A stretch of DNA of 64,000 nucleotides, taken from Amphiscolops sp. MND2022 (taxonomy: Eukaryota). Below the pieces are notes generated by a model, which did no database searches, had not been told where the DNA came from, and was given only the letters and a program-made list of their open reading frames with translations. Positions 13,650-55,699 of the stretch are shown piece by piece. Position numbers and translations under genes: made by a program. The DNA lies in NCBI GenBank assembly GCA_964187785.1, contig OZ076409.1, positions 14,386,001 through 14,450,000 of the forward strand, given 5' to 3'. Each line of letters opens with the position of its first letter. The first letter of the stretch is position 1.

Positions 13650-13679
13650 CAATTTCAACAAATACTCGAATAGTGAGAC

Positions 13680-18825: not shown

Positions 18826-18839
18826 CAAGGGGTGCGGTA
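18826..18839 (+). promoter_or_regulatory. Polypurine tract of the Bel/Pao element
   Basis: CAAGGGGTGCGGTA immediately precedes the 3' LTR. Confidence 0.7.
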
Positions 18840-26430: not shown

Positions 26431-28934
26431 ATAAAATTTTTCTTGGAAACATGGCTCTCTTGATAAGATCTAACTATGACAAACTGAATACCATGGAAAG
26501 ATCTTCACAAGATCGTAGCCAAGATTGTTCCAAGGTCTTGTCATGATGTCTTCCCAGGATGTCTTACCAAGATATCAATGGAGGGTCAACCCGGGTCATC
26601 TGTTGCATCTGAGTTTGTGGAGATTTTGGATACCTGAAAAAAGTGATTAAAATTTCCAGAAACGTCTGAAGTGTCAAACTTTAATTGAAAAAACGTCGCC
26701 GATGCAAACTACGGAAGGAGTGGAAATTTCACTTCTATCCTAGTGACCTTTTTGGTGTAATAAGGCTGATGTAAACATTTCGTTTCTTGTTCCGTACACT
26801 GTGACGTACATATATTACTTTGAAGTGGATACATGTTTTCATCCGTTGTGTGTGTAAATTTTCCAGACATTTTCCAAAAGTACTTGATTGGCATCGTAAA
26901 CCTATTTCGTTTTCTTTCCTCTATGCATTTTTCATGAACATTTACTGTATTCCTTTTTGCAGGCAAAATTAAGTATTGGTTTTTTCCCTCGAGATTTTTT
27001 CCCTGATGAACATGACTCATTTTTTCATCCAAGCAGAAAAAGAAGCGCTTTCGCTTGTTCTACAAGTCCCTAAATGTTTCTTTTTCATTTACGCGCGTTG
27101 AATAAAGACGGCGGATTGAAATTGAACAGTTGAAAAACCTTTTTAATAGGAAATTTCAGCTTCTGTTAAACAAAGACAGGCACAAGTGAACCTCTGTTTT
27201 GATCAAGATGCTTGAAAAATCTTCACAGAATAGGCCAATTGCCGAAGTTTCTACCAAGTGCTAAATAACCTTCAAAGTGTGTCAGCTTCTTTGATTTTGT
27301 TTTGTCTTTAATGATTTCTATTACTTTAAAATGTATCCTAAAGCTATAGTGTGTTAGTGGTTACCAGTGTTTTAAAAATCAGAGATCTGTCTTTCATTAT
27401 TGTCGGGGCACTGTTTTGATGGGAAATAACAGCCATGCTAAAGAATAACGGCCATCGAGTAAACTAATGATGAAAGAAACGGATGAAGTTATTTTTCCGG
27501 TTTCTGAATGCATTCTTGCACAAAATATAAACATCTGACTACAGTAATAATTTCATGGCTCAAATTGAGAAAATTTTGTCAACTTATCACAGCGAAAACA
27601 AGAGTTATGAAAATCAGCGGTAATTTCTATGACAATTTATGATCGCGAAATCATCAATTTTTGATGAACAAGTTAACCAATTTTTTCTCATTCGCCTCTT
27701 TCACTCTCGTACTCTCTCGAACTCTGGTAGAAATGTTCCGGTTTAGTTGCTTTCGAGTCTGATTCAGTTGGTACTTCAATATCTTGAACCGAAAGAAGTA
27801 TCCCTACTAGCGTTCGTGGAAGATATATTAGATTCTTTTATTTGTTATTCGAGTAAAACAGTACAGGGCAGTAGCTATTTTGAAAAAGGTCAAGTTATTT
27901 TCGGCAACCGAAAACAAGCAGCGGTCTTCTCAATTTCACAAGGTATATCTGTCATTGATTTTATTACAGCTATCCATAGATGTGGGACTAAACAGCAGGA
28001 TGAATGAAAACGTTCTTTTGACACTTAATACCGCAAACATTGGCTTAGAGACAATGTAGGTCATTTTTCGAACGATTTTTTTGTACGACGTCTTTTTTCT
28101 TTATCATGGCAAACATAAGAGCTTTATTGTATTTCTGCCACGTTCAGTACATCTGAGGTCATTTATTACTAATGCGTTCGATTATGGATAATAGTAAGTG
28201 AAAAACAAACCGTTAAAAAGAAGCAAGTCAAAGCTGGATGTCATGTGAAATTAATTGGCTTTCATTAAAGCCTGGAAAACCAACTACCAATTGAAAATTC
28301 AAAGGTTCAGAATTAATACTGGCCTTGCATTTACGTGGCAATGTTTTTTACCGACATTCCAAATGCTAATGACAAATTACTCCTAAGCGGCATGGCCGGT
28401 TTTGCAAATTTTCGAAAATTTTGACTTAAATTTTTCAATTGTTAATATATCTAATCTCCGCAACTGCGCTCACCAGAAAAATGAAGTATCAAGCGTTTGA
28501 AAGGGTTAAAATTGGGCGTTAATTTTGAATTCTGATCTCCTGTAGGCTGGGGCCAAATTCTTCAGAAATTGAGTTTCTTTTTCCAGCACTTTCCATCCCA
28601 TTCCGAACTTTTTACCGGCCTTATAGTAACAGCAGCAAAATATTCGGTTTTGTTGCACAAGGTCTTGCTGTGGAAGAGTATGGGGTTGTCTTACTTCATA
28701 GGTCAAAAGAAAATTGACTTTGCCAAGAAGGGAACTTTGGAAAAATATGTCTCTGTTCGCACCAAAAACTCAATTTTCTCAGCGTTAGACTAGAATTTCT
28801 AAAGTTTGTGCCGTTCAAACCAAACACGGCACCATTAAATTGAGAAAAAAAACTGTGGTAAGGAATATGAGCAACAGGCAAAACGAATCAGAAGTTGGAA
28901 AAAGGGTATATATACCCAAAATATGTTCTTCTAC

Positions 28935-29647
28935 TGTAACGTCCACCAGTCAACACCAAATTTTCGATGAAAAATTCGATCAAGAACCAAAAAATGTGCG
29001 AATCAAAATGGCCGACCTGGCAGGTCCTTAAAGCCCATAAAAAATGAAAGAGAGAACACGTGAACAAGAAGAACGACAAGAGATGATAAAGAAGTAGGCG
29101 ACTGACGACATGAAGATCCACACGGGACAGAATTCGAAGAACGCTACCCGGTGCTATGTCATCCCTGGGAAAGCAGAGCCATTCTAGAACTACATGACTG
29201 GATCCCCGAAAATCTACAAACAGTAACTCTATTTCCACTCGGGGCTTATCCCCCTTTATTTTGTTAATTTATATCAGAGCGTTTTGTTATTTTTCCCATG
29301 CCTGACCTTCTAGGTCGGCATTTCATGCCCATAACTGTCGAAATGAGATTTTTCGGATAAACACCTTTTTGGACCTCGGAAGTATGTAGGGGATAGCAGG
29401 AACGCGCTAAAAACCTTAGGATACGTTTTTACAGGCTTGTGGGGCGTGTCCGGACTTTGAGAGTGCCGGCACGTCGCCTCGGAGCTCTAATTAGAGGAGT
29501 CTCCTTAGACGTTAGAAAAGTCCCCCATGGAGACCATTTTGGGATCAAAAACTAGTGTCTAGGTATGTAGTAAGACAACGGTCTCCTGTTTAAGCATCCT
29601 AGGCATTGTCCCTCTTCCTAGATGTGCGCCGCTAGCCGGACGTTACA
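28935..29647 (+). repeat. 5' LTR of the giant Gypsy element
   Basis: Direct repeat of 47320-48032 with a 10-bp terminal inverted repeat. Confidence 0.98.
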
Positions 29648-29663
29648 TCTGGAATAGTTTTTA

Positions 29664-29680
29664 TGGCGACCACAGAGGGA
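29664..29680 (+). promoter_or_regulatory. Primer-binding site (tRNA-Arg-like), 16 nt downstream of the LTR
   Basis: TGGCGACCACAGAGGGA closely resembles the reverse complement of the 3' end of animal tRNA-Arg(TCG) (TGGCGACCACGAAGGGA). It is identical in the inverted copy at 55864-55880. Confidence 0.75.
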
Positions 29681-32656
29681 TAATTTTCCTTACCGCGTCC
29701 TGCGAGGAGCAACTCCTGCTTTCCGGCCCTGAAAGGTCCGGATCTAGGAGAAGCTTTTGGGAGAGTCCTAGATTGTTTTTATTGCTTTATTCTAGCCCTT
29801 TGGGCCTTATATTAGTGTTTTTCCTGCGTTTCCTGCATGTTTCCGAGGTCCCTAGCCTGAAAAAGACAGTTTGAAACGGTGTACCCCCTTGTACCTTATC
29901 TGTACTCATTAAAAGAGCTATTCCGGCTTATCCGGAACGTGTTTTAACGGGTTTTCCAGCTTCTTTTCAGCTAATTAGCAATGTACAGGGACTGCGAGGA
30001 CGGTTTGTGAAGACCCGAACTAGCTGAGTGCAGGACTGCAGGTGCTTCACGTCATAGCCTCTTCCTCCCCACCTGGTGCCGATTCACCGAAAATAGCTGG
30101 GTTATTTCGTTCCCTTTACGTTTTCTAGCCCCAAATTAGTATTCCCAGGCCTGTTTTTGCATAAATTAACTGTGAATAATACCCACAGGGTATTTACATC
30201 AGTTATTTTAAGGACTTGAGCTCGAAAACGCCAAAAATGACACTAATAACAGCTCAAATATCGAAATTTCCCGTTTTGAAAGCCAAAATTTTATAGAATT
30301 GTTAACGGCCTGTGGGAATACCTGAAAAACGTTCCGTTGGACCTACCAGGTCGAGAACAAAAGTTTTTGTTGGGCTATTTTTCAAGAAAACATGAAAATT
30401 TCAGCGATTTTTGTTCAAAAATAGGCAAAATTGGCCATTTTGACCAATTTTGGTAAGGGCGAAGCCTTGGGCGTTTGTTCCCAAGCCTCTTAAAGGGCCC
30501 AAAAAATTCTGTTGTTGTGCTTGGTAGTACGCAATACTACTACCAAGACGGTTTTTGAACACCCCCAATATAAATTGAAGTTTTAACACCACTTTTCTTT
30601 CATTAAAATAGACCTGAGTAGAGGACCCCATAGACCTGAGAGCTATAACATCAAAAATAATAATTGAAAGAACCCCACTCCCCTAAATAAAGCAGTTACA
30701 CCTTCCTACTGTACTGTTGAAACCATCTCGAGCCTCTGGGAACCGAAGAATAAAAAGTTCCTAGGGAAAATACGTGTTTTTCATAGGTGTTCCCAGAGTG
30801 TCCAAGGTGTAACCTAAAACCAATTTCGAGAGACCCTATCTGGAACCTGCCAGGTTTCGCTCGCTTATTTTCTGTTAGTAGAGAGTACTAGATTACCAAC
30901 GCTGAAAACCGCGAGTGATTCCAACCAGTGGTTGCCGAGAAATAGCCAAAAACGTGTTATTTTTGTGACATTTTCGGAACACTAGAGTAGTGCTTCCAGT
31001 ACAGGTCGAAATCTCTCCTACCAGGAGTAGCCCAAAACGGATTGCACCATCGTGTAGCACGCAAAAAGTTACGTTAGTGGTGTAATTTTCGTAGTGCTAC
31101 CATTATTAGTGATCGAGAAATCTTAGCCGCAGTTTTGCTCAAAAATGATCCGAAAATGTCGAAAAAATTGAATTTTAGTTGAGCATAGTACAATACCTCG
31201 AAGGTACCCCAGTACTAAAATTCTTGCATTTTCGTGCCCACGGCATTAGATCACGACGATTTGTGCAATTTGAGCAGCCGGCTACTACCCAGCTTAAAGA
31301 AATTGACAATTTTGTGAATTTTAGCCCCTGAAAGTGGCATACAGGGTACATCATAGTTTTGTCGACTCGGATTGCGAAATATTGACCTGGGCACCCTGCT
31401 AACTTATTTTTCTGTTACGTGGGCATAATTCACGCTCGCATACAAAATTTCAGATAGCTAGGAGGCCTAGAAGGCGAGTTTGACCACTTTTTGCGAAATT
31501 CGCGACATAGCCAATTTCTTAGTGAACATTGTTAAGTGGCCGTGACACACGCAGAATCAATTTTAACGCAATCGGAAGCTCGTTCCCCACGATTCAGCTA
31601 GTGCACTAGGCGGTGTGAAATTTTCAGGTCGCTAGCACCACTAGAAGTGATTTTCACCTTCCCCGGAGGTACTGCTTGATGAGAAAAACAAGATTTTGAG
31701 TAAAAATTAATAGAAAACCCAAGCATTCCCAATCCTGATACACCCCATTCAGGGCTGAAACCACCTGTTTAACGCATCGAGCAAGTCCCACACGCCTTAC
31801 CGAACCTATAAAATCCATATAAAGCTAGCCCCAAGATCAACGATCTTCCACTAAACGCTCTACGAGACCAAAAGACGGTAACTCCAAAAATTGAAATTCA
31901 CTTCTTTCCCGCCGCTAAGGTCGCCTAGGTGCAATTTACTCGCCATAACCATCCCGACTCTACGCCTCGCATACCCTGAGGGTGCGAGAGTGCGCCTGAG
32001 AATATCAAAACAATTACAGACCAGGTTTGCGGAACGCGTAGAGAAACTAGAACAAGGACAGGGAAAATCATCCATATCGTTGTAACCCCTTCACCCACGA
32101 GCAATAAAGCCATAGACCAGGTCATCACTCGATACTTAAACCACGCACTCCCAATCAAACCCCAGATTATTTCCAATCCATTGTCCACCCATTGTCCCCA
32201 AATCAGCCCACCCATTGTTCCCAAACTCCTCAAAAAAAAAAAAAAAATTTTTGTTGAAGAAAGTCGAACCTTCTAGGTGAGGAGAAAACAGAGGAAATTT
32301 TAGTTAGCCACACCTGCGATAGTGTGCCTAGTGCACTCCACAGATGCAGGAAGCAATTCACGCCCATTTAGCAAATCTTTACCCCAATACAAGAAAGACA
32401 AGTGACAAGGCGCGCTAAATGGCCTAGTCAGTCAGCTACTCAGTGCAGTTTAGATAATAGCCTTTTGAGTTACTTAGTCAAAGCAAACCCTCCTCATTCC
32501 ATCATCTACCACTTGTTTCGTGGGGGAAGGAAGTAGAGAAAAGCAAAAAACAAAAAACAAAAAAACAAAAAAAAAATTTTTGTTACCTTTAATTTTGTCG
32601 ACTATATAGTGGAAGCTTCACACGCAGTGGAAGCTAAAATATTACATTTCGTGGCC

Positions 32657-35600
32657 ATGGAACAACGCGAGACTAACGCCACCATGAGCGACTTCCATGC
32701 CACCAACCCTTTCGGAAGAAGAGCGGAAACCACAACCGAAGAAAACGAATGTAGATTAGATTCAGCCATAGCAGACATAATTTCAGAAGCTATGTCTGAC
32801 TTCGTACCGAGCCAGGAACAAAACGCAGAGATAGCCGTTGCCACTAGCCAGCCTAACTCCTCGCGAGCCTCCCCCGATAGCACCAATCTACCGGATAATA
32901 CTGAGAACACCACGCAAAGAAATACATGGCCTCCGCTGGAAGTCACTGACTACAGCTTGGAAAACTGGCCAAACTCCAACCAAGGGCCCACCAGTGAGCC
33001 CAGCATTGTTGATACCCCCAACGAACAAAATGGCACTCCAATGACTCCACGGGCGGACCCACGGACGGCGGAAGTCGAAAGGAACCCCCTGGGTTCCCAG
33101 GAGATGATCAATAGCGTAGGCGGGAATCCCTTCCGAAGCGGATATGCGCTACCGGAAGCACCGGCGAAAACGTCGAACAGGCCAGTGGAGAACTCGAAGA
33201 CGGACATAACAGAGAATCCGTTAAGATATGTTTTTCGAACGCCACCCTCGGTGACGCCAAAGATTAACTATGCGAATGCAAGTCGAACATCTCATACGCC
33301 AGACTCTCAAGCTAGCGCCGACACCAATCTTGACTCAACAATAACCAAAGCAAGGAAGGAAATGCAAACAGTTCGGGAAGACTTTCAGAGTAGTCTGGCT
33401 CAGCTAGCTCAAGTCCAGACGAGGCTGGCGAGGGAAAACAACGAACATGAGATGCGCGCCGACATGATAATGAGGGACATGGACGAGCTACGAAAAGGTC
33501 TGTTGGAAATGCAAGCGGAAGGGCGACAAAATCAAGGTCGACTGGAAGCGTCAATGGCATCTCTCAATGATCTGATTAAACAGAGAGAAACTACAGCGGA
33601 CGCTCGCATGGCCGAGATGTCTGCAATAATGAGAGAAAGAGACCGCCAAGCGGATGAACGCATGAAAGCAATGACAAACACGATGCAGCGCCGCGACATA
33701 GACTCCAATGTCCGCATGACGGACTTGATGATGGCAATGCAAGATTTGACATTGGGAGTGAAAGCAATCGTGTCGCAAGCCCCCGCGCAGCAAGCACAAA
33801 CGGCGCCGCGGATTCCCCAAAAAAATCAACAGACCGAAATGCCATCTACAAGCGAAGCTCCCCAACCTCATTATAGGACGGTGGCACAGCACACAGTGGA
33901 GCCTCCTAGGCCTCCAAAACTAGTGCCACCCGCAACGTACAGGCGTGACCTGTCTAAAGCTAGCAAGATGGCTAAAGTAACCCACACGGAATCACGAGAC
34001 GCAGGTACGGACCCAATGACAGACCCGCCGTCGTTTGACCAGTACGCTCGCGGAACATCAACCTCCGGCAACTTTCATTCCGCCGCCGACGAAACGAACA
34101 CCCGCAGGACCAGCTACTATACGGCCGATTCCAGCGCAGCATTCCGCCCACCTGCGCGACCGCAGACGTTCAGAGATTTCGTTCCGCGGCCAGTGGCCAC
34201 CAGTACGCAGCGTAAGATGACAAACAAGCGGAATCTGGAACAAGGCAAAGGCGAACATAGCGATATTGAAGAAATGCCCTCAATGACAGAAGAGACCCCA
34301 GACACGCCAAGAACTACCCAACGACAAGCACTAGCGGAAGCAATATCTACGGCCATGTCTAAAGGCTTGGAGCCGTTGCTCGCCGCCAAGGAATCTAAAA
34401 ACAAGCCCACGAAATATAGAGGAACCCGAGACGGAAACGCAGATGGATGGATGATGTTGATGAAACGCCATTTGGAAAAAGCACACCCCAAGGCGACCCC
34501 CCTCGATAAAGCGTGGACAATAATTGAGTATCTAGAGCATGAAGCCAGAGATTACATCACAAATAAGTCCGAAGCCGAGAGGGACACTGACGAAAAAGTA
34601 TTCGCGTTGCTGGCGCGTCGCTTTGGAACAGGTTCCAGCAAAATCCACATCCAACAGCAATTTAGAACCCGCAACCAGAATAGCGAGGAGGACTACATGC
34701 AATACCTTGACGCCCTCGAAGGCCTGCGTAGTCAAGGTTACCCCAATGAAGAGGTGACAGTTCGTCGATACGAAATCATGCAAAGATTCATTGAGGGAGT
34801 ACGCAACTTCGAACTAAAAAGGAACCTCGCGCTAATGTATGCACCGGAACAATACGTGGAAACCCCGCCAACAGTGGAAGCCCTCCGCTTCACAGTACAA
34901 CAATACTTACGCATGCGAGGCTCAACTCGTTCGGACAACTACCCAATGATGCCCCCTCCACAACAACAAGCCAACATCCAACAACCAAATCAGTCTCCAG
35001 TAGCACCCGCGCCTGCCCAAAAAATGCAACAACAACAGCCTCCCCAACCAGCAGCATACCAACAACAACCCATGCCACCGGCAGCCTATCGACAGCAACC
35101 CCAAAGAGCGTGCTTCAACTGCGGAGACCCATCGCACTTCGTGGTGGACTGCCCCCTGAAAGACCGTGCACGGAAGCCGGTACAACAGCAAGTGAACTCC
35201 TGTCACACGAACCCGACAGGTAGTTGGGTGTGCCCCTCCCAGCCACATGGCTTGAACTATGATGTTTTCCCAGCATCCCTACCAACCCAAGGCACAGTTG
35301 CCTTCTGCATTAATTGCGGCCGTACTGAGCACTCGGCGTCAGAATGCATGGCCTCGGAGCAAATGAATCACGAAGAACAAATCCGTGCAGCGTGGTATGC
35401 TCCTTCACCAAGTCGATTCGATGGCCTGAGCCAAGACGACCAAGTCCGGGTAATATCAGTAGCGGAAGATGGGGGTCCCTCCCGACCTGTAGTAGTCACT
35501 TGTGGCGAGAAACAAGTACTCACCACACTAGAGGCACCCGCCCCAGATTGCACAGAGACACTTATCTCGATACACTTGCTTCTCTCGGCCGAACAAAAAA

Positions 35601-38600
35601 CGCGACCCACGCTGACGCTATCGCAACTAAAGGAGGAATTATGCAGAAACGTGAACTATACTATCGCAGCGCGACCGCTCCCACATTTCGCGAGAGAAGA
35701 CGAAACGAAACTGGCCCCAATACAGAAAGTTAAGACCGTTTCTCCGGTGCCGGTAGCCATTAACGTAGACGGTGTAGACATGAAATTTGACGCTATCGTA
35801 GTCTTAGAAGGTCACTTCCCTCAGGGATTGTACTTGGGCCGCCAGGAGTTACGATGTTATAACATCGGAGTGCAAGATGCCCAGGGGGAGGCTCGTATTG
35901 ACGAACGGGCATCCCTGGTGGTTGCCTTTGGCAACACGATCCAGGAACCAATACCCTTGTACGGGATGATAGACACCGGTTCCGGTGTCTCGATTCTCTC
36001 CCTCAAAGCCTATCAAAAAATTGCATCACCCCACGCATTAAGCCTCCTACCATATGACATCCAACTGTATGCCGCCAATGGTAAAACCATCAACACCATC
36101 GGAATTGCCGAAAATGTTAGCTTCCAGTTGGGCGGATATACCCTCCGAACCAATTTCATAGTCATTGCCGATCACCTAGGCGCGGAAGACTTCCTACTTG
36201 GCAGAAACTTCTTGCGCACTTACAACGTTCTCGTGGACTTGACGGCCATGAGGGTCACAATACGCGACACCAAAGCGCCACGCCACTTCAAACCCGTCCA
36301 TGAGGTAAGTGATCATGAGCCATCCCTAGTGATATCCACCGAAAAAGTAGTCCTAGGCCCTTACGAGCGTAAGCTAGTACGAGCCCAAGTTATTTCTCAA
36401 AAGCACAACGAGTACCTTTTCCGAAACGTAATGATTCGCCCCCAGGGGGTATATAAACGATCCCCCTTTGTTTCAGAAGATACATTGACGTCTGTTGGAG
36501 ATGAAGGCATTGTCTTCATAGCCCTACGAAACACTACCCCCTCTGAAAACGTAACCATTCAAACCAAAACTGTCCTCGGTAAGGCAGAACCTACAAACTT
36601 TGTGTTACTACCTGTGGCTGCCGACACGGCAACCGAAATTGATAAACCTTTGTTTGAACAAGTTAATAAAGTTTATACCGAAGAGTGGTTAAACGAAACG
36701 AGTTCCGAATATAGTTCTTTTGCTCAAAACTTCTTGTCCTCTACTGAGATATCTGAAGAAGGATTATCGGAAAGCGAGAAGCGTGCTCAGACTGACCCAC
36801 AGTTACTAAAACCTATACCAGGTCCAGACCTCTCCTCCATCCTTTCTTCATGGGGGGAGGGAGCGAGAGATCAACTAGCAAGCGTCCTGAGCGAATACGA
36901 TGACCTTTTTATGAAACATAAAGCTGACATAGGGAGATGCAAAATAGCGAAACATCGTATAGAACTAGAGCCAGAAGCTATCCCACATAGAGAAGGCGCT
37001 CGGCGCATGTCCCCAGATAAGGCAGCAAAGGCTAATCAAGAGGTGCGAAATCTACTGGCCCTTGGCCTAATTCAACCCTCCTATTCACCGTGGGCAAGCG
37101 GAATAGTCATGGTCAAAAAGAAAACAGGCGAACTTCGCTTCTGTTGCGACTTCCGACCGCTCAACGACGTAACGGTCAAGGACGCGTTCCCATTGCCCAG
37201 GATTGATGAAAGTCTATCCCGGATAGGCAATGCAAAAATTTTCACAAGTATTGACCTAGCGTGGGCCTTCTGGCAGATACCGCTAAAGAAGCGCGATAGA
37301 AGGAAAACAGCATTTGCCTGTGAACTGGGCTTGTTCGAATGGCGACGCATGCCCTTTGGGCTATGCAATGCATCGGCCACATTCCAGCGCTCCATTACAC
37401 GTGCCCTGCAACGGATCCAGCAACGACACGGGAGTGTCGTCATGGCTTACATCGACGACATAGTTATCGCCACGGAAACCATAGAAGACCACATCGTACG
37501 AATCAAGGAAGTATTCGAGTGTCTCCGAGAGGCTGGATTCAAGATGCGTGCCGAGAAATGTGACTTCATGCGCACGGAGACAAAGTACCTGGGGCGAGTG
37601 GTGTCCTCGGAAGGCATCAGACCAGACCCCGAAGCAATAGTCAAGATCCAAGAATGGATGCCCCCGAGAAACAAAGAGGAGCTTCAGAGCTTCCTAGGAT
37701 TCGCAAACTATTACCGAGACTTTGTACCATTCCATGCAGCCAAAGTACAACCCCTGCAGGAGTTGCTCAAGAAGAGTCAGCATTTCCACTGGGAAATAAA
37801 ACACCAAGAAGCCTTCGATGCAGTAAAGGAAGCACTAGCAAACGCGACCGCCTTGGCAGCCCCAAATGAAGACGGACGGTTCGTGCTCGACACCGATGCT
37901 AGTGCGGTAGCGATAGCTGGAATCCTGCACCAGGAACAGGAACACAATGGGAAAACCATTTTACGGCCAATAGTCTTCGGGAGCAAGTCCTTAACGAAGA
38001 CGCAGCTGAACTATGGAGCACCCAAGTTGGAAATGTACGCAGTATTTTACTTCATAGAGAAATTCCACTCATACCTCGCAGGCCGAGAGTTCACGCTCCG
38101 TGTGGACAATCAGGCCCTGTCATGGCTTAAAACGTACTCCATGGACCAAGCCATGATAGGTCGCTGGATAGCCCGTCTGGATCAATACAACTTCAAGACG
38201 ATCCACCGACCTCGCACACAGCATCGAAACGTGGACGGCCTCAGCAAACGGACCAACGACTATGTGCACCGAGAGAAAATCCTTGAGAAGTTACCGGAAG
38301 TGAGCGAAGGATTCAACTTCATGACCAAAGAAGACTATGAAGCACTCCCCACCGTGCCATACTTTGACAAACACGGACGCCCAATACCAAACCATCCAGA
38401 GCTCCCACCGGAAGCTCGAGCCCAACTCCCACTGCTGTATATCTTGGGAAAAAGGCCCAAAACGAGCTTGCAAGAACCCCCGGTGGATGATGCCCCATGG
38501 TACCCCCAAATACAATGGGAAGCGACTCCAACCACAGATGAGGATCACCGACCAAATCACATCCTCAGCATCACGACCGAAGTGCCACCGGCACGCCTAG

Positions 38601-42325: not shown

Positions 42326-42656
42326 GAGCACGTCTCGCTCTCTAATTGGCAGATCAGGCCACTGGCCTTTTGCATTGCCTTTACTAAATTCGAAGCACCT
42401 TAAAATTTCAACAAAGCCGCGCCGATAAGCGCAAATTTTAGTCCTGACCACTGGAAACTTTTTAACCTTATGTTTGTGTGTTCGTCCTAAAAAGTTTAAC
42501 TGCCCACCCGTCTATGTGATGTCTTATCTCCAACTGTGACCTGTTTTTCAGTTTTGTCCTGTTGCCTCGCCTCTGCGCGGCCCCCCTACTTATCACGCCA
42601 AATCAGTCTTGCCATCACAATCTTCGGTGCTAAACATTCCTTTATCATCGTTTCCA

Positions 42657-45600
42657 ATGGACCCATCTGCGCGACACCGCCTGCCTGCACCCCAGAACGC
42701 TGCGCGTGCCCAACCATCCGCAAGGAACGACCCACCTGCAATGATGAGCGAAATAGATGGTCGAGTCGACCAACTAGCTCTTGTCCAAGACACTCTACTA
42801 AACGGAGCGACACCCACAATGATCACTGGCTTCGCCATGATCATCGCCCAAACCCAAGCTCAAGCAGAGTACCCTGATGTTAGCTTCACTATCACCAGCC
42901 GAGTCGGCCCGATAGAACGCTCTGCCACTTTTCGCGACGGTACCTGGCAAGGGTATGACTTGACCCACAGCCTCATAGATCCTCGCTCCCACGTAGTCTA
43001 TGGAGAGCCTACTAGGCCCCCCATGGACCAAGAACGATCACTCCGTATTTCACAATCAGCACTACAGACGTTACAGACGCAAACTACGACACCGTTACCC
43101 TCTCCGCACCCGGTGCAGTTCAGCTGCACACTGCCAATCATGCCACCCCCAGTGCTGACACCGCCCATGCCCCTGGCATCGGAAGGCATTCGATTACTGA
43201 CCACCCCATCTTCTACCTTCATGCCTCCTTCTACCTTTCAGGGGGGAGGGGTGCAAGTAGACAATACAACAAGTGCTACCCTGAGCGAAGAACAACCCAG
43301 GAGAACGGTAACGTTCAAGGACTCATATGAAGAATTAACTCAGACGTCCTCCAGAGCTGAATCACAAGTCTCGGAACCTCTACAAGCCTCAGAACCAGCC
43401 AGCCTAGTAGGCTTCCAAATGGACCCACAATTCCGAGAACGTCAGCGAGAACAACAAAAAGCTGAAAGTAAGGCAGCCAACACTGTGGTAGACCTCAGGG
43501 AGAAAATAAAAGCTGGAAAGCGAGCCAGAGAGGCGACCATGCAAGGTAAACAATCGAGCTCGACCAGTGTCCCGCAACCCTCGTCTGCCTCACCCACACA
43601 ACCAGAAACAAGGAGACCGAGAATAACACACGAACTCCTAACACATTCAGAAAAACGGCAGCTGGATATCACTGCACGCGACGCACTGCGTCTGCAGCGG
43701 GAAATACCAACCACAACGTCACCAGAAGACCCTCTACGACAGAAATTCGAGACCGCAACGGGAACTGGGGACCTCGCCACAAGGCAGAAAATAGAGAAAG
43801 CCACAGTGGGAGTACTCTACAATCGCCCCGTCAAGAAACCAGTGTTCACTCGAGACGGATGCCCCCCATGGTTCAACCGCATGCGAGCAGAATTGGAGAG
43901 AGTAAACTCAACATACATGCGTGTTCCTGACAACTTCCTCCGACAGCGCCCTGGCCGCTTCGACGAAGATCGCTTGCGAACTAAAAACTATGCGAGGGAC
44001 CCCATTACAATCCTACCCATGGGAAAGGACCTTTTGCAGAAAACCAGAATAGCCTTCTTCGTCGACTCGACGATGAAGTCTTCATTCAACTCCCACAATA
44101 CCCTCATGGATGTCAGAATAATGAACATGCCCTGTACAACACTGAACGAAATGGCAGAGGTGACCGACAAAGTATTCACCCAAGCGGGAACAGAGACCAT
44201 CCCATTACCTCCGTTGCTGGTATATTCGAATGTGATAGATCACCTAGCTCTGCGAGGGACCCTGGAATTTTTCCGACCAGACCACGAAAGGTTTACTGAG
44301 GGGTTCGTCACCGACGAAGTAACCAACTACGTGGAGACAATGGCGAATATTGCCCAAACTATGCGCAGAAGGAAAGCTGTCACTGGAACGGTATTTATGT
44401 CACCTCCAGGCTACGTGCACCTTCCCCGGACCCTTCAGCAATTCTTGTACCTAGTAATGGAGGCAGCGTACGCAAGAGATCTGGCTTTCTACATTGTGGC
44501 CCCCAATTTACGCATCAGCAATAATAGCTGGCGCCCTTGTGAAGCCTCATACCCAGCCTTCATTGCTGAAGTCTCAAAGGCCCTTCAATCATACGTCGGT
44601 TACCGCGGAAACTCCCAAATGGTAGTAGATGAAGCAACAGCATTCGACTACGGGATGGAAATGGCTCGTCGATCATTGAACGAGCGTGGAGACCGAATCG
44701 TGAATGATCCAAATGAAGGTGAGCGCAACAACCTGGTGGATAACCTCTGGTTTGAACGCCGGGACGAATCGACCATAGACGAGAAAACACATGAACCCAA
44801 GTTTCACAAGGAACTCACGAATCTAATGAAAGAAACCGAAACGATTCAAGGTGATAGAAAGAATTCCTCCATCTTCCCCATAGCACAAATATCATTGGAT
44901 GCTGAACCTGGGCAAAGATCACCCACATTAGCCATGCTGTTGATACTGGCTCAAGACATTGTACAGAAGAATATTCAAGAGCCGACACACACGTACCAAA
45001 CATGGCACGATCAACTACGAGAACCTCTGGGCCAAGTCGCGGACCGACTGGGCATAACATTTCCCGTATTTCTCCACAACATCTCTCCCTTCTGGCTTCC
45101 TTCCCTAGTACAGGCCGAGTACGGCCTGGATGAGCAGCGAATGCGACTTTACATGGAGGCCAGGGAAAGAGCGACCATTAGTGAAATACTAGCGTATATG
45201 ATGGCTGTGGGGTTGACCATGATGTACAGAGGACCGTCAGCCCTCATACAAAAGTTCGTGCTCAACAAGGGAGGCTCAGCCCTGTTCAGCTTCCTAGTCT
45301 TTTCGCAGAATCAAAGAAGTTGGATATCTGCGCTCATTGAAACTCTGGACCCAGCGGGTTCCTTGAAATTAAAAGCGCAACTGGACTTAAACATCCAAGC
45401 ACTTCTAGTGTGGATTTATTCCACCTGGGTCAATGTCTCAGGCGTTATGCACCCTCTGGATGAGTGCCCAGCTATTAACCGAGACCCCAATCAACTTCCT
45501 GGGTTCCTGTTCCCTACACAAGTTGCAACGTTGATGCTCGTGGAAACAGAGGACCTAATACCCCTCATTGCTCCGGTAGTCTGGCCTATCTTCGGCGCAG

Positions 45601-46751
45601 TTATGGCCCTGCGCTATCCAACGCAGGCCCTGCGAGTGGCAGCGGTGAGCCCATCCCTCTCGATTCTACACTTCGTGACCTCTGATGGGCCCCTTCAGGG
45701 TCCCACCTATCAATCAGTGATACACAGCTTTGCCAACTTGCGACCTCCCATGGCATACACCGTAATCAAAGACCGCCAACAAGTGGAGCACAACTATCTC
45801 ACCTTGATCAAGGCGAGAGCACGTAGCTCGCTCCCTTTGCCAATGGAAATACATCCGGTAGTTTGGCTACATACCCCCATTGATCCAAATAATGGAGCAG
45901 TGGCGACATTTGAAGGGTGGGACGTGCCAGTTGTCCTGCGTATCTTGAGAACAATTATCCAAAGATTGGGTGGTCGTCGAAAAGGAGAAGAACCTACTAG
46001 GTTATTGTATCCCTATGCGTGTGACACTTCCAGAATATATTGTACAAGAACAGAACCCCGCGAGCATACCGCCAGAATCTTGAATACCATTACATGTTGG
46101 GCTCAGCCAGAGCTCGTGGACCTCGCTATACACCAGACCTTCCAACAGCTGCCAACAACCATTCCAACAGTAGCAAAAGAACCAAGCAAGAAAGATTTGC
46201 CCGTGAACACTGACGTTCCCAGCAACCCGCGTATGGCACTAGAGATATTCGTGCGTCTGCATGGTCTCCAGCGAGAACGTACTCGAGCCGTGGGCGAAGA
46301 ATACGCTAGGGGAATACGAACGTTCAGGCAGCTGTTCACCCAATATGGCCATCAAGAATTAGCGGACGGCCTGCCGAACTTGGAATCAGTCGAAGCCATC
46401 CCAGGGATTAGCGATTTGAGCGAAGCTGCCTCTGGCAGCTCTCGCACCGTCTTTCCCACACCCCACATCAGTCAAGACTCCAATGAAATATTGGTGGAAG
46501 GGGTACAAGATGATGTGCCAGGCGTCATGCCACCATCAGAGGAACCTATGACTGACAATAACTTCACGTTCTCTGATGCCACTACTCCTGTAAGAGACGA
46601 AGTGGAGACCAATATCTCGAACATGGAGGCAGCGGACATAGAGTCAGAACTCAATAACTTGCTGACCATAGATGAAGAATATCAGAATACGGTGGATGCC
46701 TTGGGCAACACCTCAGTCCAAGAAGCCCCACAGAACCAACTGTTGGAATAA
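42657..46751 (+). CDS. ORF2 of the giant Gypsy element, ~1364 aa, unknown function; contains a degenerate SGNH-like domain; not a recognisable env
   Basis: Uninterrupted 4.1-kb sense ORF between pol and the 3' LTR. No N-terminal signal peptide or Cys-rich ectodomain. SGNH-like pattern at about 44046-44585. Confidence 0.9.
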   Translation: MDPSARHRLPAPQNAARAQPSARNDPPAMMSEIDGRVDQLALVQDTLLNGATPTMITGFAMIIAQTQAQAEYPDVSFTITSRVGPIERSATFRDGTWQGYDLTHSLIDPRSHVVYGEPTRPPMDQERSLRISQSALQTLQTQTTTPLPSPHPVQFSCTLPIMPPPVLTPPMPLASEGIRLLTTPSSTFMPPSTFQGGGVQVDNTTSATLSEEQPRRTVTFKDSYEELTQTSSRAESQVSEPLQASEPASLVGFQMDPQFRERQREQQKAESKAANTVVDLREKIKAGKRAREATMQGKQSSSTSVPQPSSASPTQPETRRPRITHELLTHSEKRQLDITARDALRLQREIPTTTSPEDPLRQKFETATGTGDLATRQKIEKATVGVLYNRPVKKPVFTRDGCPPWFNRMRAELERVNSTYMRVPDNFLRQRPGRFDEDRLRTKNYARDPITILPMGKDLLQKTRIAFFVDSTMKSSFNSHNTLMDVRIMNMPCTTLNEMAEVTDKVFTQAGTETIPLPPLLVYSNVIDHLALRGTLEFFRPDHERFTEGFVTDEVTNYVETMANIAQTMRRRKAVTGTVFMSPPGYVHLPRTLQQFLYLVMEAAYARDLAFYIVAPNLRISNNSWRPCEASYPAFIAEVSKALQSYVGYRGNSQMVVDEATAFDYGMEMARRSLNERGDRIVNDPNEGERNNLVDNLWFERRDESTIDEKTHEPKFHKELTNLMKETETIQGDRKNSSIFPIAQISLDAEPGQRSPTLAMLLILAQDIVQKNIQEPTHTYQTWHDQLREPLGQVADRLGITFPVFLHNISPFWLPSLVQAEYGLDEQRMRLYMEARERATISEILAYMMAVGLTMMYRGPSALIQKFVLNKGGSALFSFLVFSQNQRSWISALIETLDPAGSLKLKAQLDLNIQALLVWIYSTWVNVSGVMHPLDECPAINRDPNQLPGFLFPTQVATLMLVETEDLIPLIAPVVWPIFGAVMALRYPTQALRVAAVSPSLSILHFVTSDGPLQGPTYQSVIHSFANLRPPMAYTVIKDRQQVEHNYLTLIKARARSSLPLPMEIHPVVWLHTPIDPNNGAVATFEGWDVPVVLRILRTIIQRLGGRRKGEEPTRLLYPYACDTSRIYCTRTEPREHTARILNTITCWAQPELVDLAIHQTFQQLPTTIPTVAKEPSKKDLPVNTDVPSNPRMALEIFVRLHGLQRERTRAVGEEYARGIRTFRQLFTQYGHQELADGLPNLESVEAIPGISDLSEAASGSSRTVFPTPHISQDSNEILVEGVQDDVPGVMPPSEEPMTDNNFTFSDATTPVRDEVETNISNMEAADIESELNNLLTIDEEYQNTVDALGNTSVQEAPQNQLLE

Positions 46752-47311: not shown

Positions 47312-47319
47312 GGGGAGGA
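47312..47319 (+). promoter_or_regulatory. Polypurine tract of the giant Gypsy element
   Basis: GGGGAGGA abuts the 3' LTR. Confidence 0.75.
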
Positions 47320-48032
47320 TGTAACGTCCACCAGTCAACACCAAATTTTCGATGAAAAATTCGATCAAGAACCAAAAAATGTGCGAATCAAAATGGCCGA
47401 CCTGGCAGGTCCTTAAAGCCCATAAAAAATGAAAGAGAGAACACGTGAACAAGAAGAACGACAAGAGATGATAAAGAAGTAGGCGACTGACGACATGAAG
47501 ATCCACACGTGACAGAATTCGAAGAACGCTACCCGGTGCTATGTCATCCCTGGGAAAGCAGAGCCATTCTAGAACTACATGACTGGATCCCCGAAAATCT
47601 ACAAACAGTAACTCTATTTCCACTCGGGGCTTATCCCCCTTTATTTTGTTAATTTATATCAGAGCGTTTTGTTATTTTTCCCATGCCTGACCTTCTAGGT
47701 CGGCATTTCATGCCCATAACTGTCGAAATGAGATTTTTCGGATAAACACCTTTTTGGACCTCGGAAGTATGTAGGGGATAGCAGGAACGCGCTAAAAACC
47801 TTAGGATACGTTTTTACAGGCTTGTGGGGCGTGTCCGGACTTTGAGAGTGCCGGCACGTCGCCTCGGAGCTCTAATTAGAGGAGTCTCCTTAGACGTTAG
47901 AAAAGTCCCCCATGGAGACCATTTTGGGATCAAAAACTAGTGTCTAGGTATGTAGTAAGACAACGGTCTCCTGTTTAAGCATCCTAGGCATTGTCCCTCT
48001 TCCTAGATGTGCGCCGCTAGCCGGACGTTACA
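47320..48032 (+). repeat. 3' LTR of the giant Gypsy element
   Basis: Direct repeat of 28935-29647. Confidence 0.98.
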
Positions 48033-50823
48033 TACAGAATTTAGCACCGAATCAATTTTGTTGGTAGCATTTGTTGTTCATAGTCTTTATGTATTAATTT
48101 GAGCTTGTTTGAGAAAAGTGCCAAGTTTTGTCATTTCGTTAATGGTTTGTAAGTTTTCAGAATGTTTTTCAGAAATAAGGCATCTCAAAATGGGAGTCAA
48201 AACGTGTCAAATGTTTTCCAGTTTTCAAAGGCTGTGTGCAATTTTTGAAAGTTTTCTTTGGAATAAGATTATTAACTACACTCGAGCGCTAACACATGTT
48301 GGCCCAAAATTATTCCAGGGCACAAAATATCCCGAAGCTCAGCTCAGCTGGCGTTGTTCCCTTGAATCTCGTTGGTTTTTGGTTTTACAGTTCTTGCAAG
48401 ACAGCACGGCGTGATGGTTTGAAGATTCGGCTCTTGTGAGAGGACAAAATCTCCGAACGCTCTTTATTACCTTCTTTTTGTTCGTATGTACCACTGCGGA
48501 GACAACTGGAAGTTTTATCTTGTATTTAGTGAACGCTTTCAAACGAAAAATCCAGGTATCATTGTGAATATTTTAGGATACACGTCATTGGACCGATTTG
48601 AGTTTTCTTCATAGAAAAACTGACCTATTTTATTCCATAATAACAGACGTCAAGTCGTTCGAAGCTTGCAGTAAGCCGGGAACTTTCTTTGTTATTTTGA
48701 TTTCATGAAAACGGTTTGGTTAGTTTTACTAATTGATGAATTTGTTCACTTTTTTGGTACTTGTAACCCTAACTTTTTGTCGGCACTTTGGAACTAAAAC
48801 TTAGCTATTATTGTGGCTTTTGGTCGTTTTTTTTCAATCCTGTTAAAGTAGCTGAAAATTTTCTACAGAAGACATAATATCTGATGAGGTCCAAAAAAAC
48901 TCAAAGCATCCGTCCTTCAATTTTTGACATATTCTTATTACAAATCTCTGTTAGTTTTTTTATAGCATTCAATGCAACTTTTTTTGGAAACATTCTTCAA
49001 GTTCACAAAAAGTTTCTCGGTTTGGCTTTTCAAAATATTGAGAAAAGTAGGAAAAATTTTTTCTAGCCCAAATGATCCTACTGTTTTCGGCACTGGACTG
49101 TGAGGTTTTGATAACATTTTCAAAATCAGTTCTTCGACGTTTTGACGTATTTAGCGCCTATTGAACCTTAAGCTGAGCTCTGGCTTATGTCGTTTTTGTA
49201 TTGGTTGTCGAAAACTATCAATCAGTGTTTTGGAGTTTCTCAGAGAGTCTTTTATGCTCAAAATGTCATCAGTTTGTTCCTAAATGTTGATGTTTTCAGT
49301 TGCATGTCTTGCAAACAGCACCAACAAAGATGAAGCTTTTCCTGGTTAAGGTAGATTCAAGGAAGATTTTTAGTCTATGCATATGCTGACTTGATTGCAA
49401 AAAATTATTTGCGCGTAATCGTTAGGCGACAATGTTTGACAAACAGTGTACAGATACGTGTACTTATAATCTGTTTTTAGAATCTTCAGTTTGATTAATT
49501 CCGGCTTAAAATCGACAGAACAAGCTTTTGCCCAATGAAAGTTGACTATTACATTGGTTACTTGAGACATTCACTTTCTTTATGATTCTATTTTGTCTTT
49601 TAGTTACTTAATTTTTAGGATTTGCACCAATTTGCAAAGTTGAATCGAACCCTAGTTTAATCTGCAAGAAAAATCCGCTTGTTCAATAAGGTTGCCAAGC
49701 ACTTTTAGCATGCTTTTAGGAGTTCCATCGAAAATCATTCGTGCTGAATAATTCCCTGATGCAAAGCTAATTCTTCAGGTGTTTTTTAGTATTTCTATAC
49801 AATGTGGCGAGGTCTGTGAGAAGCATCCAAAAAGTTCAAAACGAAATTTGCGCGAATTTTCGCTAACCTTTACGGTCAAAACCTCATGTTCTGCAAAGGA
49901 GACACTAATATTCAAAATATACAATTTTCTAGGTGTGCTAAACGGGATACAAAATAAAATTCGTAGTAAGAAAATGATTGGAAAAACTAGATAATTACAG
50001 TTTCAGCTTCATTTTAAAACAAACTTTTTTGAACCATATTTGTGAATCACTTTTTTGCTTTGTGTACTTACCATTTGAACCACTTTGTGCGGACTCCGTT
50101 TTCGATTTTTGCAACAAGCGTATTCGAAAACTCACGATCTGAATTTGACAGAAGGCATTGTTGCTTCCCAATTGCGAAACATTGTTTGCCAAACATTGAA
50201 AGTGTTTTTTCCTATATTTGAACTTGTGTTCGCCCATGTTGAGCTTTCCTTGAGAATCTGTACAGATCTGTGAGCCTTTTTTCCTTAAGGATCTGTAAAG
50301 ATCGTGCCACTGCTACGTAAGGACAACTGCAGATCTGCAAGGATCTTTAAGGATGTTCAAGGATTTTCTGTACAGATCGTTCAGGAAATTTTTTCGCGTA
50401 GCTTCTGGGAAACAATGTATTGCATTTTTGGGCTTCTTCAACAAGTACTTTTGCTGACCAAGGCTCAGTCAGTTAAAAATCTCCCACACTCAAAATTCTT
50501 GAGCAGGAAAACTTGTCCCCATCAAGGTAATTTTGGTGTCTGGGGAAAGTTTGGTATAGGTTTTGCACGGTAATTTATCTATTTCACTCGAACTTTCCAG
50601 AAGTTGCTGTTCAACTTTGAGCGGCTCGTTTGGTATATTGACTTCGATTTGACGGATGTAATTGTACATGTGGCTACCGTCTGGGTTGGCAGAGGCGTTG
50701 ATAAAGGAATGTGGTTGTAATATTTCGGGAACATGGTTAGCTGGAGTAGTTTTAGTAATTGCTGGAAACTTAGAATACATTATAGTAATTTATTGGTCAT
50801 TTTTGCATGGTTAACTTACGACC

Positions 50824-51030: not shown

Positions 51031-52889
51031 GGGAGTGCTCAACATGGGCGCTTCATATTTATCATGATTTTATTTTCCGTTTTTTGTCGCCAACAGTGGA
51101 AGTTTCAGCTCTTCCAAACAATTTTAGAAGAATCAGCGTTTCTAGCCCACTTACAATATTCACATGAAAGTTTTATATTTCGCGTTTTTCCGTTAGAAAA
51201 AAATCTGTTTCAAGGACTTTTTTCAAAAGTTCTGTGAATTGCATTGACTTTTTCCAACCTGCCGTGAATTGCTACCAGGGCATTTCGAGCAGCAGTATAT
51301 TTTTATAAGTTTGAATTTTATAATTTTATAACAAATCACCCAGTATACAGGCCTGAAGCATGTAAAAAAGCCCTTCCATTTCCGTTTAGGAAGCGTTTAA
51401 AGTTTTTTGAATATTCCAAACATGGTATCAATTTTGCCTTTACATAATTCTTCGTGGTATTCTCTGGGATTCAACATTCCAAAATCTCCCCCAAATAATT
51501 TCCACTTTCCGGTCGGCGTCTCTCTGGGTTGATCGTGGGTTGTTTAATCTCAAATTTCTTTGAAATTTACATCAATATTGATAGAAAGTTGATGTTTTGA
51601 AAACAAGTATTGGCTGCATTGAATCTCCTAGAACGATGTAGGGATAGAACCTAGAATTTGCTTTAGTCCTCTATTTTTTGCGAAGTTTTTTTTATTGCTT
51701 CTATGTTGACAAAGTTATAATCTCTAACACGGAGACCTAATTAGTTGCATCGGCTGCTCTCGGCTCGGGGAATGAGCTGACTTGAAAGAATGGCTAGTCA
51801 ATGAAGCAAGGACAGTTAATGGTTGGGATAGAATTATTCCACCCACAGAAAGTGACTGACGTGCGCTTGGGTCTGTCCCCTCCCACAAAGATTAATCCCA
51901 GGGGGTGTCCATCCTAGTCGAATTCCGCCTTCCCTGGTTGGGATTGCTTGAACTTTTTACAAGTTTTTGGTTACCAAGCTGATTTTTCATGATTTTATAA
52001 AATTCTCAAGGAAACGTCCATGCGTATATATTTCACTGATTCCATCAATTTTATCATGCTGCCTATAAAATGCATCCGAAATTTACCATTCTTCACCATC
52101 TCAAATAGGCAACAGCTCGTATCTGCTTTTTCACGGTAGTGAAATTCATCTTCCGCCGAAGAATCACTCAAGCAACTATGCGAATTGATGCAAAGCAGAA
52201 AGCAAACTAATCCTTTTCAATTATCCTGGGAAAAGAAGCTCCTAGATGAGTAACGATGGTGCTTGGGTATTTCTTGGTAGTTTCAAAAAAAGACGTTGTT
52301 TCTACCTGAAACACAGTACTTTTCAAACACACTAAAATGTAAACAGTGGATAATCAAATCAGGAAGCTTCACGCAAATTTGAGGGTACAATTGGGGCATT
52401 GGAAGTTTCTCAAGAGGGGAGTTATCGGCAAACTTCCGGACCCTAATCTCTAAAAAATCTTCAAGCTTCAGATATGACGTAACAAGTCAGATTACGCTTG
52501 CGATGTTTATTTACTTTCATACCATCATTGTAAACACGCGTTTTTAGGTCAAAACTTCCTATCGGAAATTGCTATCTGAAATCTTTTGACAGTTTATACA
52601 AGGTATGATTCTACAAATGAGCACATCCTAAATCTCTCTTGATAATTACAGCGTTGACTTTTTAGAGACAGGATGTATGAAATTTCATTTCCTGATGCAA
52701 TTCATCTACCGTTCTAAACGGAGGCAACATTCGCGCAACAAAATTGGGTTACAAGAGATCAATGTATAACGATGATTGAGAAGAGTTATTTGACAGGTCG
52801 TGTCTCCTGAACCTGTCACTTGGTGGTGACAAAATGATGTGCTAGAAACCAACCAATGCCCTTATAGTAACTATGGTGGTTTCCCAACT

Positions 52890-53147: not shown

Positions 53148-54058
53148 ATTTGCTACGTAATAGTAATTATTGTCAGCTGAAATAAACATATAGGCCATAC
53201 TAGAATGCAATCTTTGACGTAGTTTAATTTTCATGTTTTTGTGAAGATTTAATAGTTGGCGCTTGTTTTTTCCCGAGGTTTTTGTCCGTCTTAGTTGGTA
53301 TAAAATATACACGACTGAGTTTTAGTTTTCCTTCAGTTGAAAAACAGTCCAAAACATCTTAGAACTCTTGCAAAGATCTTGCATATTCTTACATATTCCC
53401 GTTCTTTACATATTCCTGAAGGCATTGATGAAATTGTGTTTATTCTTGGTTGACATAATCCCCTTAATTTCTTGAAATTTATTAAAAGAATTATATAAAA
53501 AGTGCCAAGAACATGAATATTATGCAGAACAAACAATTTTTTAAATTATAGCCATTATGTTACTATTCTCAGTACCAGCTACACACACTATCATTATCTG
53601 ACGTTTTGCTTGAACACCCAAACAAAAATTCAAATTTCCCGCTGTGATTGCTCAGTTGGTATCCTGAACATCTGTGGCATAAAAGGTACTCTGATCAAAT
53701 TTTAGTGCCGACTGTTTTCCTTTGTTTCGATGCCTTTTCATCGAAGGTTTTTCTTCAAACTTTCCGGAACATCTTGCAATGTATTGGGTGAAAATCCTGA
53801 AAAAATTAGTAGCCAGTGTTTCACGAAAAATTGCAAACTGCTGATCAAGAGTATACAGAAAACCGCTCCAGACAAACGCGCCCTGGTCAAAAACATTCGA
53901 AAATCACAGCGAAATGCATCCCAATCAGCCATGCCTCGAACAGAAATGTCTTACAAAACCTTGAGTTGTTGTTTTGTAGCACAGAATTCAATTCAAATGC
54001 ACATACACAAAACACATGAGCCCTGCTTTTGAATACCTAGGTGTAGAAAATGAGTCAG

Positions 54059-54856
54059 TGTAACGGGACCCCTGGTACAGCGATTTCGCAACTTCGACAT
54101 GTTCAGAAATTTTGTCAAAAATTCTAATTCGATGTGCGTTCTCGCTCGGTCTTGCTCGGTCCTCATTTTGCATTGAAAATGGCGAAAACAGCGAAAAGCA
54201 TGTGATTGCTCTTTTCGCTGTTTTCGCCATTTTCAATGCAAAACGAGGACCGAGCAAGACTGAGCGAAAACGCAGAGAACGAAAAAGCTTGGGGGCTTAG
54301 AAAAACTCTGAAAAAAGACTCTTTCTCAGGTGCTAACCCTGGTTTTCTTTGAATTTAGCATCATGCTAGCTTAAGTAGCGGAAACCAGCAAAATGAGTCC
54401 TGTAGCCTAATTATCCTTTTTTGGTGCTTGGAGTCCCTGCGCCCCAGCTTTTAGCTGTGTGGTTTGCCATATTCGTGCCTGTTCTGATGTATTTTCACTG
54501 GTTTTAACTAGCTCGATCGCTAGTTTTGGCAGGCTTAGACCTTATTCCCCATTTTAGAACTTATTTCCCATTTCACCCTTCAATTGGAAAATTACCTTAT
54601 TCTTGGCATTGTTTTTATGTGCTAGTTAACGGTGGTCTTTAGAGAGTCAGGAAGATGCCCGTTACTATTAGCAATCAAAGACTATGACCGGTTGTACAGT
54701 ATTCGTCGAAGCACCCACGGTCTCGGAACGTATTTGACCCCTGGAGGCAAAATGGATCTGTGGCGATGGGCGCCTCTCCCGAGCGATTTATCCATTTCTG
54801 CAGGTTCCTCCACCTCTGTTAGCGTGTCAAGCGACCGACAACAGCTTGCCGTTACA
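54059..54856 (+). mobile_element. Solo LTR (798 bp) of the same Gypsy lineage
   Basis: TGTAACGG...CCGTTACA termini, similarity to LTR 443-1172, CAG on both flanks, no adjacent PBS or PPT. Confidence 0.85.
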
Positions 54857-55699
54857 CAGCATTATAATTGAAGAGGCACTTTTCAGAAACCATCCGAATT
54901 TCTCGTTGGCAAAAATCATTGAAACTCAAAGTTTATTGAATTAATTGCGATCCAAGGTATAAAGGCCCTGGTCAAAAGCGTTTTTATACAGTCATTAACA
55001 CCCCAGTCGGAAAAACCCCAAAAAGAACCATCCCGCTAAAACTCAAGTTGGGTGCTGATTGTAGAACTTGATTCAATATCAATGCGAAAATCCTTCTTGA
55101 ACTGCCGAGTCACGTAATTGCATCTGTGTAAATCGAATCAATCTTTCGATTAAGTAGATGAGAAAAGTGTCAACCTTAATCACTGCTTTTTTCATCTGGG
55201 TCAAATTGCTCACCGCCAAAAACAGCGTGACCTGACACAAAATGTTGCAACGGCATGTAGCGTAATCATAAAATTTAAATGTTCGCTTGTCTAGAACGTC
55301 TGACAGTAGAAATAACGTTCTAGGCTTCGATAACCTTCAAATTATCGCGAGGTCGAATGAACAATTCAAACACAGCTGGATAACGCACAAAGTATATGAC
55401 AAATGCTGCGGAGAAAAGTGATCCATACGTTTCTTATCGAGACATGGAACAGCAAACAGCGGTCATTTCAAGGATAACCAGGAAAAAATATCCTGAAGAA
55501 AGTTTGTCTTATTTTCTAATACCCGACACTGTAGTTTCTTCAAAAAGGTTGCAAAGCTCAAGAATGAACAAAAATTCAGTGAAATTGCAAGAGCATTTGC
55601 CAGTTAACAGAATGTCCCAATTTGACTGACGTATATGTAATGAAAATGGAATCGATTTGCATTAGTTCAAAGGTATTACAAGGAATACTTCAACTTGTT

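Follow-up and report, generated by a model that had tools for sequence, protein, structure and literature searches.

In a 64,000-nucleotide stretch of contig OZ076409.1 from Amphiscolops sp. MND2022 (below, the window), we examined four long terminal repeat (LTR) retrotransposon insertions, termed A to D, whose LTRs share the same 7-bp ends. Two of them, the full-length element B and the solo LTR C, can be read on both sides, and each is flanked by a 3-bp target-site duplication (TSD). We consider it likely that both were inserted by a giant Ty3/Gypsy lineage whose integrase joins DNA with a stagger of 3 bp, a trait reached independently of Troyka, the LTR retrotransposons already known for 3-bp TSDs.

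The flanks of B read TTCTAC/TGTAACG...CGTTACA/TACAGA, and those of C read AGTCAG/TGTAACG...CGTTACA/CAGCAT. When the two flanks of each insertion were compared over lengths (k) of 2 to 8 bp, B matched at 0/2, 3/3, 0/4, 2/5, 2/6, 1/7, and 2/8 positions and C at 0/2, 3/3, 0/4, 0/5, 2/6, 2/7, and 0/8, with a full match only at k = 3 in both cases. Because the scores at 4 to 6 bp are poor, these flanks are not decayed 4- to 6-bp TSDs. B is also too young for TSD decay, since its LTRs are identical at 712 of 713 positions (one mismatch, at LTR position 191). An earlier, sequence-only reading of this stretch had proposed the duplications TAC and CAG, with no extension to 4, 5, or 6 bp and with 3 bp at both testable sites, and each of these observations was borne out. 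The 3-bp TSD is thus seen at 2/2 testable insertions of the four in all (A, B, C, and D); the TSDs of A and D are not readable because the left end of A precedes the window and D is truncated.

A 4- or 5-bp TSD would appear as 3 bp if the LTR ends were misplaced by 1 or 2 bases. This matters because we met such a case at locus L083, outside the clade of B described below, where the LTR alignment overruns CA by one base, so that a TGAC/TGAC duplication looks like GAC/GAC. For B and C, each end was shifted by −3 to +3 bases (49 combinations) and compared at k = 3 to 8. The sole exact match for either insertion was the unshifted 3-mer (0/48 shifted registers), which refutes misplacement by up to 3 bp. 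The ends of B are fixed independently as well, because its internal junctions read GA/TGTAACGTCC on the polypurine tract (PPT) side and GGACGTTACA/TC on the primer-binding site (PBS) side. These form a perfect inverted repeat of 12 bp, and 2 nt follow each CA. With the junctions GA/TGT and ACA/TC in place, we give misplaced ends next to no weight. The window contains six TGTAACG and six CGTTACA heptamers, and 10 of the 12 mark the termini of five LTRs: A, the B pair, C, and, on the minus strand, D (55897-56608). All five run from TGTAACG to CGTTACA and measure 712 to 798 bp. The two stray heptamers were rejected as LTR ends: the TGTAACG at 11395 has no LTR homology, and the CGTTACA at 43069 falls within the second frame of B.

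Chance matching was measured with 10^6 random flank pairs drawn from the part of the window that belongs to none of the elements (29,510 bases). A 3-bp match arose at a rate of 0.023 per site (about 1/43), more often than the 1/64 assumed in the sequence-only reading. The probability was 5.3e-4 for a 3-bp match at both sites and 5.8e-4 for a match at both sites of any equal length from 3 to 6. In a blind scan covering the window and 123 loci, 24 of 1512 TGT..ACA segments with inverted ends had a 3-bp match, C included; this is the chance rate, and no further 3-bp site rose above it. As a control, the BEL/Pao element in the same window has TG..CA ends flanked by a 4-bp duplication, CTAG/CTAG; its target site is palindromic, however, and permits other registers once the ends are shifted. 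The visible target triplets, TAC (1173-1175), TAC (28932-34), CAG (54056-58), and GAG (56609-11), have a central A and C or G last. The central A in 4/4 triplets possibly reflects a preference for certain targets (post hoc P of about 0.01).

Ordinary 4- to 6-bp TSDs might instead have been lost at B and C by recombination between copies, small deletions, or misassembly, leaving 3-mers whose agreement is coincidental and made likelier by a target preference. Such look-alikes occur in maize, although elements there have 5 bp as a rule. A 3-bp TSD was reported for 108 of 43,226 intact maize elements and ascribed to recombination or mutation (10.1101/137141). High copy number, at 633 and 342 members in the clusters for the two frames of B, favors recombination and collapse, a shared central A raises chance matching, and with about 250,000 windows scanned, rare coincidences will surface. 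However, two independent losses plus two matches are needed, the matches alone having a probability of 5e-4, and B has nearly identical LTRs with both long frames open. At the squared maize rate, two spurious 3-bp cases would have a probability of about 6e-6, a wide margin even bearing in mind that a plant rate is borrowed as the null and the pair was picked post hoc. We therefore regard the loss of longer TSDs as improbable and retain a 3-bp stagger as the better account of B and C.

By its sequence, B is an intact Ty3/Gypsy (Metaviridae-type) element, as indicated by its domain order, its best match to Ty3, a GPY/F-like motif, TG..CA ends, and a PPT. Metaviridae are defined by reverse transcriptase (RT) phylogeny and domain order and not by TSD, and the 4- to 6-bp TSD typical of them is not what B displays. 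The element is 19,098 bp long (19.1 kb), with an interior of 17,672 bp (29648-47319) and an LTR spacing of 18,385 bp. Its gag-pol product carries a zinc knuckle at amino acids (aa) 857 to 873, a weakly matched protease at 1143 to 1225 (E value, 0.007), RT at 1526 to 1686, RNase H at 1752 to 1884, and integrase from 2139. This protease-RT-RNase H-integrase order has no tether, as RT ends at 1686 and RNase H starts at 1752. The knuckle is of the form CX2CX4HX4C, as in 6/9 relatives listed, the other three having no match. In the integrase, the catalytic residues D2218, D2279, and E2315 are conserved, leaving D-D(35)-E intact. The GPY/F-like motif is WRGPH in B and WRGPH, WRGPF, or FKGPF in 8/9 proteins and 3/4 loci examined, so that its last residue is His in B and Phe in several relatives. 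By similarity, the best solved relative of the gag-pol product, over RT-RNase H-integrase, is Ty3 Gag-Pol (E values, 9e-105 and 2e-73), followed by an entry at 2e-48 and a spumaviral-type Pol at 1e-31. An integrase profile built from 25 sequences aligned co-linearly with Ty3 integrase (E value, 5e-34).

The gag-pol product of B probably ends in an OARD1/TARG1-like macrodomain, predicted to be degenerate in B and clear in the relative L002. The OARD1 match had an E value of 1e-17 with the family profile and 3e-26 with L002 (10840-11514), whereas the window copy of this region alone gave no Pfam match and aligned with L002 at 23% (E value, 0.001). For the second frame of B, an Atlas search returned no match of 0.9 or more, and we saw no evidence of an envelope protein in it, with a single 19-aa hydrophobic stretch above threshold. 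Neither of two AlphaFold structure predictions was usable (mean predicted local distance difference test scores of 50.5 and 43.1). Upstream of gag-pol, TGG stands at +3 and the candidate PBS TGGCGACCAC at +17. This arrangement, with TC-TGG directly after CA and TGGCGACCAC 16 nt off the LTR end, is alike in B and D (55871-55896). Self-priming of B was rejected, as the longest complement is 9 nt and AT-rich. The remaining leader of about 3 kb (29674-32656) holds no plus-strand ATG frame of >60 aa.

LTR C has no PBS or PPT beside it and aligns end to end with LTR A (score of 108 without the termini, reached by 0/100 shuffles); on this homology, C is a true solo LTR. A leads in turn to B, since the end of its 3' untranslated region and its PPT are homologous to those of B (score of 37, reached by 0/300 shuffles). 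By blastn, C gave no alignment with the LTR of B and so belongs to another family. As members of separate families, B and C are independent insertion events. The sequence-only reading had placed both in one Gypsy lineage, which stands only in an indirect form: they are different families, tied together via A and by the 7-bp ends that they have in common. The outer flank of D is GAG on the element strand. Inside C, positions 54135 to 54274 form a hairpin with 64-bp arms that are 95% complementary.

TABLE 1 Features of the window, in order of position
Feature	Position	Strand	Basis or remark
3' LTR A, 730 bp; element starts before the window	443..1172	+	Right flank TAC
BEL/Pao element, 4-bp CTAG/CTAG at TG..CA ends	12627..19089	+	Domain matches, flank comparison
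Left TSD copy of B, TAC	28932..28934	+	Flank comparison
5' LTR of B, 713 bp, TGTAACG...CGTTACA	28935..29647	+	LTR pair alignment
TC beyond CA, then TGG; candidate PBS TGGCGACCAC at 29664-29673	29648..29673	+	Sequence; also after LTR D
gag-pol frame, intact, 3262 aa, first ATG 32657	32537..42325	+	Open frame, domain matches
Integrase	38951..40006	+	HHCC, D2218-D2279-E2315, GPY/F-like WRGPH at aa 2454-2458
C-terminal gag-pol region, degenerate OARD1/TARG1-like macrodomain candidate	41714..42322	+	Profile and relative L002
Second frame, 1403 codons, 1364 aa from ATG 42657	42540..46751	+	Open frame; no family assigned
PPT GGGGAG and 2-nt GA before 3' LTR	47312..47319	+	Sequence
3' LTR of B	47320..48032	+	LTR pair alignment
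Right TSD copy of B, TAC	48033..48035	+	Flank comparison
Left TSD copy of C, CAG	54056..54058	+	Flank comparison
Solo LTR C, 798 bp	54059..54856	+	Homologous to LTR A over its full length
Right TSD copy of C, CAG	54857..54859	+	Flank comparison
Truncated element D: 5' LTR of 712 bp and about 190 bp of leader	55704..56608	−	87% like B over 486 bp

The direct basis for a 3-bp stagger comprises LTR ends of TG..CA, extensions of 2 nt (GA/TC) at the internal junctions, the intact D-D(35)-E integrase, and the same 3-mers at both testable sites. By analogy with retroviral integration chemistry, as set out in the available text of a review (PMC9410886), the integrase would trim 2 nt to expose CA-3'OH ends. 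These ends would be joined by staggered strand transfer to target phosphates 3 bp apart, and gap repair would then leave the 3-bp duplication. At C, the interior would have been lost by LTR-LTR recombination with the TSD kept. Active sites that lie closer together, or a target bent more sharply within the intasome, might account for the shorter stagger. Troyka demonstrates that LTR integrases are capable of 3-bp staggers. The unusually short stagger suggested by the sequence-only reading is supported at n = 2 and survives the tests of boundary error, decay, and chance, with the qualification that B and C are linked only via A.

Several points weigh against this interpretation. The two sites were picked post hoc from one window, and the case is built on flanks in that window. 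C is joined to B only through A, and B and C show weak direct similarity, with scores reached by 7 and 11 of 300 shuffles. The integrase of B is co-linear with that of Ty3 and has no obvious cause of a short stagger. The residue Thr2282, which, going by the HIV numbering, we take to be equivalent to Ser119/Ala188, is an ordinary small residue, and relatives have Pro, Thr, or Lys there. LTR pairs were found at 0/10 clade loci of at least 5 kb, so there is no replication outside the window. Finally, TSD lengths are mixed elsewhere, as in Rous sarcoma virus (RSV; 5 and 6 bp) (PMC9410886) and at one 4-bp Troyka insertion (PMC12440569), in the parts of these papers available. An imprecise integrase making mixed duplications (e.g., 3 and 4 bp), for which 3 bp would be real but one class only, would find precedent in these cases (RSV and its avian sarcoma/leukosis virus group, and Troyka) and in IS481EU, and two sites are compatible with a sizeable 4-bp class. 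Both sites, from two families, are nonetheless 3 bp, and we think mixed lengths unlikely.

The 3-bp TSD itself is not new. The sequence-only reading stated that LTR retrotransposons usually make 4- to 6-bp TSDs, and this general rule stands, but it overlooked Troyka. In the available text of the 2025 survey by Kojima (PMC12440569), Troyka combines a 3-bp TSD with CG..CG ends (CGCCA..TGGCG), other LTR retrotransposons are said to make 4 to 6 bp, and 3 bp with CG ends is treated as the Troyka marker. B could thus be a divergent giant Troyka, or a Gypsy element with a Troyka integrase, that inherited its TSD length. B and Troyka as described there share the 3-bp TSD, the protease-RT-RNase H-integrase order, a single gag-pol, and the lack of a tether and of a found envelope. 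Some relatives of B also come from contigs labelled marine, and Troyka is aquatic in occurrence in that account. In contrast to the published description of Troyka, B has TG..CA and not CG..CG ends, LTRs of 713 bp and not 100 to 400 bp (all five LTRs of the window exceed that range, at 712 to 798 bp), an interior of 17,672 bp and not 1,553 to 7,691 bp, a Gag zinc finger of CX2CX4HX4C and not CX2CX8-10HX4C, and a GPY/F-like WRGPH inside the integrase itself where Troyka has no GPF/Y. B further carries the macrodomain-like tail and the 1364-aa second frame. A position outside Metaviridae in RT and integrase trees is another Troyka trait. Membership in Troyka was rejected on five traits compared with that description (termini, LTR length, interior, knuckle, and GPF/Y), and the integrase profile matches Ty3 best. 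A Troyka origin is thus very improbable, and, because B fails these traits, its 3-bp stagger is probably independent of Troyka.

Among other known systems, Ty3 is the best solved relative and is like B in its co-linear integrase, TG..CA ends, PPT, and domain order. It makes a 5-bp TSD on a target bent by about 90 degrees, in the portion of the structural report available (10.1101/2021.07.27.453949), whereas B is 19 kb long with extra domains and apparently makes 3 bp. Retroviral intasomes share CA-3'OH ends, staggered strand transfer, and a small residue at the Ser119/Ala188 position with B; the review text available gives their stagger as 4 bp for prototype foamy virus and murine leukemia virus, 5 bp for human immunodeficiency virus type 1, and 6 bp for mouse mammary tumor virus, maedi-visna virus, and human T-cell leukemia virus type 1 (PMC9410886). 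Bacterial IS3-family elements have integrase-related DDE enzymes, and most subgroups make 3 bp in the accounts available, but they are DNA transposons without RT or LTRs (PMC10045372, PMC2836005). Searches of the literature turned up no Gypsy family that combines TG..CA ends with a 3-bp TSD; Repbase, which lay outside them, may record one. TSD data were absent from PMC10309623, PMC7084138, PMC9911081, and PMC6451197. A 3-bp TSD in a TG..CA, GPY/F-type Gypsy element may be new.

The clusters for the two frames of B, with the sizes given above, lie in ENA-sourced contigs. B fell within a clade of 38 (support of 0.996) when 135 sequences were placed in an RT-RNase H tree by FastTree with a midpoint root; the tree drew on matches covering >300 aa plus 34 chosen proteins, with no named Gypsy reference set. 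This clade includes contigs of 13 to 24 kb with pol frames of 2150 to 2725 aa, downstream frames of 1340 to 1900 aa, and, in some, an OARD1-like macrodomain. The downstream frames of relatives are equally large, and two have a weak IBR match; the clade proteins P0067 and P0106 have a GDSL/SGNH-like domain elsewhere. We hold only tentatively, as a possibility short of even, that the whole RT clade around B is an undescribed giant Gypsy lineage with a 3-bp stagger evolved independently of Troyka.

Scans of metagenomes and prokaryote genomes for further insertion sites gave 80 and 32 loci, while viral contig searches gave 0, 1 distant, and 0 matches. Genome G001 contains clade fragments, but LTR-end patterns were no commoner in it than reversed control patterns. 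Eukaryotic retrotransposon contigs lie inside prokaryote genome bins (L082, L114, L115, and L120, all in G001, and L083-L113), probably by binning contamination. In one out-of-clade element (L062:2125-14231), the LTRs are 1.9 kb long with TG..TA ends, and the flanks at the aligned ends do not match.

Elsewhere in the window, the BEL/Pao element has 250-bp LTRs with 3 mismatches and broken frames, and its CTAG duplication sits inside the palindrome ACTAGT. A third, unrelated Gypsy-type element (58051-64000) has short LTRs, a broken pol, a left flank of GTTTC, and its right end off the window. Inverted or dispersed repeats that resemble decayed DNA-transposon ends occur at 50231-51050, 6097-6297/20152-20358, and 4218-4332/51934-52045. 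No host genes were identified within the 64-kb window.

A short TSD also bears on how such elements are detected. The suggestion in the sequence-only reading that TSD-filtered pipelines would miss this family agrees with a published LTRharvest setting of -mintsd 4 -maxtsd 6; LTR_retriever, on the other hand, did report cases of 3 bp (10.1101/137141). The LTR spacing of B (18,385 bp) exceeds a second limit. LTRharvest has a default maximum distance of 15 kb. With hundreds of coding copies of the family of B in public assemblies, TSD length is easy to test.

If B and C are as we propose, a TG..CA, GPY/F-type Gypsy element with 3 bp would uncouple the short TSD from CG ends and would represent a second origin of the short stagger. 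It would also make a close relative of Ty3 available for comparing structures at a stagger under 4 bp, the minimum among the retroviral intasomes cited. Should the clade-wide reading hold, structure-based LTR finders would be systematically missing a lineage, and its Ty3-like integrase would be one in which to ask what sets the lower limit of the intasome stagger.

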